Of a stretch of DNA of 22,652 bases, positions 10,132 to 10,307 are shown piece by piece. The notes below the pieces were generated by a model. That model saw nothing but the letters and a program-made list of their open reading frames with translations, was not told where the DNA came from and searched no databases. Within the stretch, counting starts at the first letter, position 1, and every line of letters starts with the position of its first letter. The position numbers and the translations under genes were made by a program. The DNA is from a virus (Duplodnaviria; Heunggongvirae; Uroviricota; Caudoviricetes): IMG/VR virus record IMGVR_UViG_2859827302_000003; one strand, written 5' to 3'.

Positions 10132-10200
10132 TGTTTTTTAACCTCAACTCAGATTAAAATTACTGCGAGTGATGAATAAATGTCCCAGGTTCTTCACTCA

Positions 10201-10232
10201 GGCCTGCACAGTGTGCAGGCTTTCTTTTTTTC
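10201..10232 (+). terminator. Intrinsic-terminator-like hairpin oriented for the + strand, with no + strand gene upstream
   Basis: Perfect palindrome gcctgcaca-g-tgtgcaggc followed by tttcttttttt. Confidence 0.35.
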
Positions 10233-10307
10233 AGATTTCACCTTTTAATTTCATTGCAATCAGAGTTGCCAGAAATTCGGCTTTTTTTTCTGCGGGCAGA
10301 TTCTTTC

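Follow-up and report, generated by a model that had tools for sequence, protein, structure and literature searches.

A candidate small antisense RNA gene in the racC-recE spacer of Rac-like lambdoid prophages

Introduction

Short antisense RNAs in phage operons are exemplified by the 77-nt OOP RNA of lambda, which lies opposite the 3' end of cII and the cII-O spacer, and by the ~68-nt sar RNA of P22, which lies in the arc-ant spacer. In the Rac prophage the RalA RNA of the ralR/ralA type I toxin-antitoxin system, 179 nt long, overlaps rcbA and acts with Hfq on the ralR toxin mRNA. In plasmid R1 CopA/CopT-tap-repA and in hok/mok/Sok, an antisense RNA blocks a leader ORF that is needed for translation of the downstream gene.

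Here we analyse a 22,652-nt stretch of DNA (the window, meaning the whole stretch at its full length), a Shigella-like chromosomal segment that holds a decayed, IS-riddled Rac-like lambdoid prophage remnant. The evidence set out below suggests that the 99-nt racC-recE spacer of Rac-like lambdoid prophages probably contains a small cis-encoded antisense RNA gene. RNAs of this kind, phage cis-antisense RNAs with an intrinsic terminator, are already known; this one is unannotated and new.

The resemblance to OOP is close in arrangement: a short non-coding phage RNA transcribed against an early operon, expressed in the lysogen, with a promoter (here a candidate) where the downstream gene begins, a body that spans the gap separating it from a co-transcribed upstream gene, and an intrinsic terminator at, or within, the 3' end of that upstream gene. 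We detected no sequence relationship and no Rfam match between the two, however, and while OOP overlaps ~50 nt of the cII coding sequence, the racC-recE RNA ends at the racC stop codon without overlapping any ORF. The RNase III-dependent action of OOP on cII has been demonstrated, whereas an action of the racC-recE RNA is proposed by analogy. With sar the locus shares a small antisense RNA between co-transcribed phage genes, a candidate promoter near the start of the downstream gene and an expected damping of that gene, but sar covers the ant ribosome-binding site whereas the racC-recE RNA would leave the recE Shine-Dalgarno (SD) sequence, which lies in a separate hairpin, uncovered. RalA, annotated as a constitutively expressed small RNA, a trait it would share with the racC-recE RNA, is encoded in the same prophage arm, on the same (+) strand and opposite the early-left operon; the racC-recE RNA differs in facing no toxin ORF, in its length of ~65 nt, in being unannotated and in its absence from the Hfq tables searched. 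Finally, CopA and Sok resemble it in that the antisense target lies upstream of an SD that is left uncovered and sits in a hairpin, and types A and B of the spacer (below) contain a 17-codon GTG candidate leader ORF. The difference is that this leader ORF is proposed from sequence alone, and that there is no sequence relationship with either system.

Results and discussion

The racC-recE spacer of the window

BLAST searches against complete E. coli genomes, together with RefSeq annotation, identify the gene directly upstream of recE as racC (Table 1). In the closest relative, E. coli O121, RefSeq annotates racC as 'frameshifted', and in the window one A is missing from an A-run at 10326-10332, giving a -1 frameshift. 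Alignment and translation place the true start of the gene at 10505 and its true stop, TGA, at 10231-10233, and RacC can be rebuilt in translation by combining frames 0 and 2; an apparent 81-aa gene at 10308-10553 is this frameshifted racC. Since racC stops at 10231-10233, the true spacer is 10132-10230, 99 nt long, and the 176-nt gap between minus-strand genes described in an earlier note on this DNA (10132-10307) does not exist as such. The T-run at the left end of racC abuts the racC stop codon. In the O121 genome racC is frameshifted at the same A-run by an insertion (T9 versus T8, read on the + strand), and this homopolymer may be a recurrent slippage site. The RNA locus of the window is still intact, though racC is already a pseudogene.

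Table 1. Features of the racC-recE region and of the rest of the window (+ and - give the strand).
Feature	Position	Strand	Basis or description
recE-family exonuclease VIII gene, 646 aa	8191..10131	-	Pfam Exonuc_VIII, E = 1.3e-37; RecE annotation in relatives
Candidate -35, TTGTTT	10131..10136	+	Sequence; kept in nearly all variants
Hairpin 3, recE mRNA leader	10136..10159	-	UUUUAAUCU-GAGUUG-AGGUUAAAA; -6.3 kcal/mol on the mRNA strand vs -0.9 on the + strand
Candidate -10, TAAAAT	10155..10160	+	Sequence; 18-nt spacer after the -35
Predicted antisense RNA, ~64 nt	10167..10230 (start ~10166-10169, end ~10226-10230)	+	Fold; 3' end of the K-12 homologue; 5' end placed from the -10
Hairpin 2, 5' stem-loop of the predicted RNA	10167..10199	+	GAGUGA-U-GAAU ... 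GUUC-U-UCACUC; predicted fold
Hairpin 1, terminator stem-loop, 10 pairs, loop AGU	10200..10222	+	Inverted repeat AGGCCTGCAC-AGT-GTGCAGGCTT
U-tract UCUUUUUUU (DNA TCTTTTTTT)	10223..10231	+	Sequence; directly 3' of hairpin 1
racC pseudogene (RacC-like, 91 aa if intact)	10231..10505	-	Alignment to intact copies; RefSeq 'frameshifted' / 'protein RacC'
IS110-family transposase gene, upstream of racC	10732-11907	+	
SdsR/RyeA sRNA pair	463-607		Rfam, 176.7 and 115.6 bits
CssrB, Shigella sRNA	20587-20769		Rfam, 151.6 bits
Three IS66-family copies	5428-7760, 12241-14573, 14658-16712	two direct, one inverted	Set of 133-aa, 115-aa and 512-aa ORFs

A + strand terminator at the racC stop codon

The palindrome, the T-run and the + orientation reported in the earlier note are all present at the racC end of the spacer, but its perfect 9-bp stem is not: hairpin 1 has eight Watson-Crick pairs (10202-10209/10213-10220), extended by G10201·U10221 and A10200-U10222. 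Six pairs of the stem are G-C, the loop measures 3 nt, and the folding energy is -15.5 kcal/mol on the + strand against -14.2 kcal/mol on the - strand. On the + strand this is a GC-rich stem-loop followed by a U-rich tract, the arrangement of an intrinsic terminator, and the last base of the tract (10231) is the first base of the racC stop codon in + strand coordinates. Our terminator scan detected hairpin 1 with its T-run on the + strand only; the flank of the hairpin on the minus strand is not U-rich. When a terminator-like site is defined as an 8-bp perfect stem with at least six T within the next 10 bases, the whole 22.6-kb window contains three on both strands, compared with a mean of 0.07 in first-order Markov simulations, and one of the other two is the terminator of the SdsR sRNA. 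Hairpin 1 with its U-tract is not a chance feature.

In E. coli K-12 MG1655 the equivalent hairpin reads ATAGCCUGCG-CCAUA-CGCAGGCUAU and is followed by UUCUUU. The Term-seq tables of Adams et al. 2021 (PMC7815308, Supplementary file 1) give a + strand 3' end at 1417486, classed solely as 'antisense racC', in three entries of a table whose scope is three growth conditions. The two scores retrieved for it, 185,664 and 146,140, compare with 134,815 for GcvB, 133,651-254,683 for SibA and 63,516 for OxyS in the same tables (PMC7815308). An independent study by TRS/RNAtag-seq and term-seq (PMC10687069) lists a terminus at 1417487 (+) in several datasets and reports a predicted hairpin there; the value beside it, 0.98-0.998, which we take as the fraction of reads ending at that position, is accompanied by p-values of ~0 (PMC10687069). 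Both RNA ends fall within the U-tract of the equivalent hairpin, so the + strand terminator works in vivo in the K-12 homologue. The earlier note had proposed that a short + strand transcript terminates at the hairpin and lies opposite the recE leader, and had named 3' end mapping as a check; the published K-12 maps and the G·U substitutions described below both support it. In the K-12 homologue the strand and the 3' end of the RNA are thus observed, and from the -10 hexamer we infer a 5' end at about 10167 in the window. The same Term-seq tables hold strong minus-strand 3' ends at 1419679 (-), an orphan near racR, and at 1420148 (-), internal to racR (NC_000913.3; PMC7815308), which add to the unannotated RNA ends of the Rac immunity region.

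Spacer types and the strand under selection

The spacer is found in 1785 of 5426 complete E. coli genomes, about one third. From 185 loci in genomes, IMG/VR and metagenome assemblies we obtained ~37 distinct sequences, which fall into four types: A, that of the window; A' (loci L097, L101 and L103, with L104 as a close variant); B, that of K-12 Rac; and C, represented by one low-coverage metagenomic contig (L181). Although types A and B diverge heavily between an invariant block at the recE end and the racC stop, hairpins 1 and 2 and the U-rich tail are present in both; types A' (L097/L101) and C also retain a hairpin at this site. The tract varies from T6 to T8 and is U-rich in all A, A' and B variants. 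Types A and B are each joined to either of two different recE N-termini, which leaves the invariant block as the one upstream sequence that every context shares. Where recE comes immediately after ydfD, the phages contain neither racC nor the hairpin nor TAAAAT, which indicates that the element accompanies racC. RacC has no distant relatives; its copies, 54-100% identical, are all in Escherichia/Shigella, which limits the power of any comparison.

Alignment of seven distinct variants shows that four of the 11 pairs of hairpin 1 change on both sides; the stem is kept by compensatory change among relatives. Over the whole stem the difference between strands is small, with 92.2% of cells paired on the + strand and 89.6% on the - strand (slid controls, 16-43%), while at the nine central pairs every cell is paired on the + strand and three cells are broken on the - strand. 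Variable positions of hairpin 1 run A-U / G·U / G-C on the + strand. Across the predicted stems seven of eight transitions leave a G·U pair on the + strand but an A·C mismatch on the - strand, namely those in the type A outer pair, L045, the A' inner pair, L130, L170 (one in hairpin 1 and one in hairpin 2) and L004 (hairpin 2), and the single reverse transition, favouring the - strand, lies in hairpin 2 of a B subtype. Hairpin 1 taken by itself gives 5 to 0 for the + strand. The binomial probabilities are ~0.03 if the events are independent; the counts rest on few events, drawn from four spacer types of low diversity, all from Escherichia/Shigella. The substitutions lend modest support to selection on the + strand RNA at hairpin 1. 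For hairpin 2 the strand evidence is mixed, type C having one compensatory pair and one wobble that pairs on the - strand.

These substitutions also bear on whether the palindrome is an operator for a dimeric repressor, the alternative offered in the earlier note. Its dyad symmetry, the invariant GCCTGC/GCAGGC core and the constant 7-bp spacing of the half-sites would suit such a site, but the flanking stem positions change in the compensatory manner of an RNA, the G·T breaks the symmetry of the DNA, the loop varies freely by inversion or substitution, and in type C another hairpin stands in place of the core. Moreover, a U-tract always follows, the RNA 3' end maps there, and the palindrome lies 70 nt from the recE start, within the operon, with no known promoter nearby to regulate. 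We regard an operator as scarcely credible. As to the loop, it occurs in both orientations, AGT/ACT in type A and CCATA/TATGG in type B (L012, L113, L150 and L170, compared with 10210-10212), which suggests inversion by template switching or cruciform processing at the palindrome.

A candidate promoter at the recE start

The TTGTTT and TAAAAT hexamers and the 18-nt spacing noted earlier are present in the sequence, with the candidate -35 overlapping the recE start codon (CAT at 10129-10131). As a match to consensus the pair is weak, with 3/6 positions in the -35 and 5/6 in the -10 around the 18-nt spacer, which is below the threshold of our scan, and patterns of this sort at up to two mismatches number four against the 2.25 expected by chance from shuffles. 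The support for this candidate promoter comes from its context rather than from its consensus match. Of promoter-like pairs upstream of the terminator, TTGTTT-18-TAAAAT, weak as it is, is the only one common to the window and K-12 and thereby to both recE N-terminal contexts; TAAAAT is intact in 23 of 23 A/B-type variants of the first set examined, and conservation ends exactly at its 3' edge. In the divergent variant L181 the -10 is degraded to AAAAAT and the spacer is 19 nt. The invariant block that holds the candidate promoter also forms hairpin 3 on the mRNA strand, and because L181 keeps hairpin 3 by compensation while its -10 weakens, conservation of the block cannot be credited to the promoter. 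Published surveys add no entry: papers on RpoD and minor-sigma gSELEX do not list the racC-recE spacer, the Cappable-seq supplementary tables searched have no coordinates matching it, and a preprint on antisense transcription has nothing on it. The abundance of the K-12 RNA under repression of the early-left operon speaks for a constitutive promoter close by.

The main alternative is that hairpin 1 merely ends a longer, non-specific + strand antisense transcript whose start lies within recE or still further left, for instance at spurious promoters of the AT-rich prophage, so that there is no dedicated small-RNA gene. The mapping covers the 3' end alone, the local promoter is the weak match just described, and in K-12 the recE gene contains further candidates with TAAAAT, 150-240 nt upstream. 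Those candidates are not common to the recE type of the window, however, whereas the terminator is kept with both N-termini; the 3' end signal is as strong as those of abundant sRNAs, in a silenced prophage; the Term-seq tables list no other + strand 3' ends across recE; and long untranslated antisense RNAs are, as is established, usually shortened by Rho (Adams et al. 2021). A long transcript is for these reasons unlikely, though it deserves to be kept in mind ahead of the other alternatives.

The predicted RNA

A dedicated RNA starting downstream of TAAAAT would pair with no part of the minus-strand mRNA other than its racC-recE spacer. The fold predicted for such an RNA, two hairpins with a U-tail, has an energy of -26.6 kcal/mol (z = -4.7), and shuffled sequences fold significantly less well than either strand of the spacer. 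Hairpin 2 is also predicted in K-12, with a different sequence. By its position in the spacer of the co-derepressed early-left operon, the RNA has extended perfect complementarity to a co-resident mRNA.

This two-hairpin, U-tailed architecture and the high abundance in K-12 are also what one might see in a trans-acting sRNA, dependent on Hfq or ProQ and directed at host or other phage mRNAs, for which the local complementarity would be irrelevant. A weak resemblance to OmrA/B points the same way: it is the best relaxed Rfam match of the spacer, at 22.5 bits against a gathering threshold of 40 (E = 0.035). At the gathering threshold, however, the spacer matches no family in Rfam 15, the Hfq RIL-seq-derived sRNA tables and CLASH tables searched contain no racC or recE-spacer entry, and the body of the RNA differs so strongly between types A and B that no seed is conserved. 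Divergence of the body with retention of its shape would be tolerated by a cis-antisense RNA and not by a seed-dependent trans-acting one, and we consider a trans-acting role, with which the stem covariation also agrees poorly, very improbable.

A coding role for the + strand RNA was rejected: an ATG ORF of the window reads through the terminator, and K-12 has just an unrelated 9-codon ORF. Considered as a type I antitoxin, the RNA faces no toxin-like ORF, its neighbours being RacC (a retron-toxin blocker) and RecE, with the 17-codon candidate as the one ORF opposite it. The literature searched yielded no report that connects racC or recE with an antisense or small RNA, and the K-12 RefSeq annotation has no RNA gene in the spacer, though it lists ralA and kilS nearby. 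K-12 would therefore gain another abundant small RNA missing from its annotation.

The recE leader and the mRNA strand

On the mRNA strand the recE end of the spacer has structure of its own. Hairpin 3, which overlaps the candidate promoter, is predicted to half-bury the recE SD (GAGG, 10142-10145); it is invariant in the A and B types and, in type C, is kept by one flipped pair and one G·U, both of which work only on the mRNA strand. Through hairpin 3, translation of recE might depend on temperature or on translational coupling. This AU-rich hairpin gives a sub-threshold Rfam match to the HtrA 5' UTR thermometer (19.3 bits against 52). The 5' end of the predicted RNA falls ~20 nt short of the recE SD and leaves it uncovered, so that any effect on translation would be indirect. 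A 17-codon GTG ORF is present on the mRNA strand of A and B types, at ~10143-10196 (-) in the window and ~8400-8453 (-) in the K-12 locus L003. It begins in the region covered by the antisense RNA, and its stop codon, a TGA, lies within the recE SD (GAGUUGAGG); since the invariant block closes each of the three frames, the shared end is uninformative and may be a coincidence.

It could be asked whether the hairpins mainly serve the minus-strand racC-recE mRNA, the + strand RNA being incidental. They might act as a 3' stabiliser or processing site after racC, as a partial or bidirectional terminator limiting read-through into recE, or in control of the recE leader. Hairpin 1 begins 8 nt past the racC stop, the mRNA strand is at least as stable overall (-28.7 versus -27.5 kcal/mol), two of the changes in hairpin 2 favour the minus strand, and hairpin 3 over the recE SD is clearly, as predicted, a structure of the mRNA strand. 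In the same sense, recE is reportedly silent, classically, in wild-type K-12. Against this stand the minus strand itself, which has no U-tract after hairpin 1 in any variant, the hairpin 1 transitions, all five of which break the minus-strand pair and keep a G·U on the + strand, and the abundant RNA end, which is that of the + strand. Published work further shows that silencing of racR derepresses racC, recE, recT and ralR together. This joint derepression means that the RNA is not an absolute block and rules out a tight minus-strand terminator in the spacer; the idea of hairpin 1 as such a terminator, accounting for recE silence, is weakened accordingly. One published remark leaves recE out of the genes with more than 40-fold induction, but it is too imprecise to serve as evidence. 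Taken as a replacement for the antisense RNA, a purely mRNA-strand function is decidedly improbable. For hairpins 2 and 3, however, it is compatible with an antisense RNA gene and the two can coexist; an mRNA-strand function is well supported for hairpin 3 and not for hairpin 1.

Putative action on recE and racC

For the antisense RNA gene that we favour, we envisage that the sigma-70-type promoter TTGTTT-18-TAAAAT, within the recE translation-initiation region, would fire on the + strand at ~10167, and that the transcript would fold into its two hairpins and be released at the intrinsic terminator (10200-10231) at the racC stop, giving an RNA of ~64 nt perfectly complementary to the spacer mRNA. 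Pairing with the polycistronic early-left transcript could then produce a long duplex, by analogy with lambda OOP and P22 sar, and this duplex would undergo cleavage or stand in the way of events 5' of the recE ribosome site. Once the operon is derepressed, expression of RecE and/or RacC would be lowered or uncoupled. From the analogy with these systems we infer a regulatory effect on recE or racC, and control of the racC:recE ratio is an attractive role that the RNA may have.

The position of the RNA gives such control some interest, lying as it does between racC and recE, the latter being the basis of RecET recombineering and of the sbcA phenotype. Damping or uncoupling of recE by the RNA, if it occurs, would help to explain why RecE is low, and would constitute a lambda-OOP-style control point in the recombination and anti-defence module of Rac-like phages. 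RacC and RecE form a published blocker/trigger pair for retron toxin-antitoxin systems: the toxin RcaT is blocked by RacC, and its retron is triggered when RecE degrades the msDNA. More speculatively, and in our estimate improbably, the RNA could be a built-in governor of this anti-defence pair that sets the RacC:RecE ratio. Cleavage of the duplex might uncouple the racC and recE cistrons, or, on the pattern of CopA/tap/repA, the RNA might block a leader ORF that, when translated, would open hairpin 3. Were this so, the phage would make the blocker before the trigger, and the four spacer types would differ in specificity, as plasmid incompatibility groups do.

Other features of the window

Upstream of racC the IS110-family transposase gene occupies the region where relatives have ydaE and kilR or ydfD and dicB, and ydfD-like sequence remains at ~10560-10640. 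The prophage remnant is flanked by SdsR/RyeA and CssrB, and an integrase gene split by an IS adjoins sdsR, which suggests that the prophage attachment region is near sdsR. The window also contains an ipaH-type E3 ligase gene and a pphA-like phosphatase, and its IS elements comprise IS1, an IS3-type element, three IS66 copies and one IS110-family element; in the inverted IS66 copy the transposase is broken, leaving a 252-aa ORF that ends in the DDE domain. A second strong terminator-like hairpin, GAGGCCCG-GGGG-CGGGCCTC followed by TGTTTTT, is found at 18680-18709 (+), between a DUF4376 gene of the tail-fibre region (17940-18563, +) and the 3' end of ipaH (18743-20458, -).
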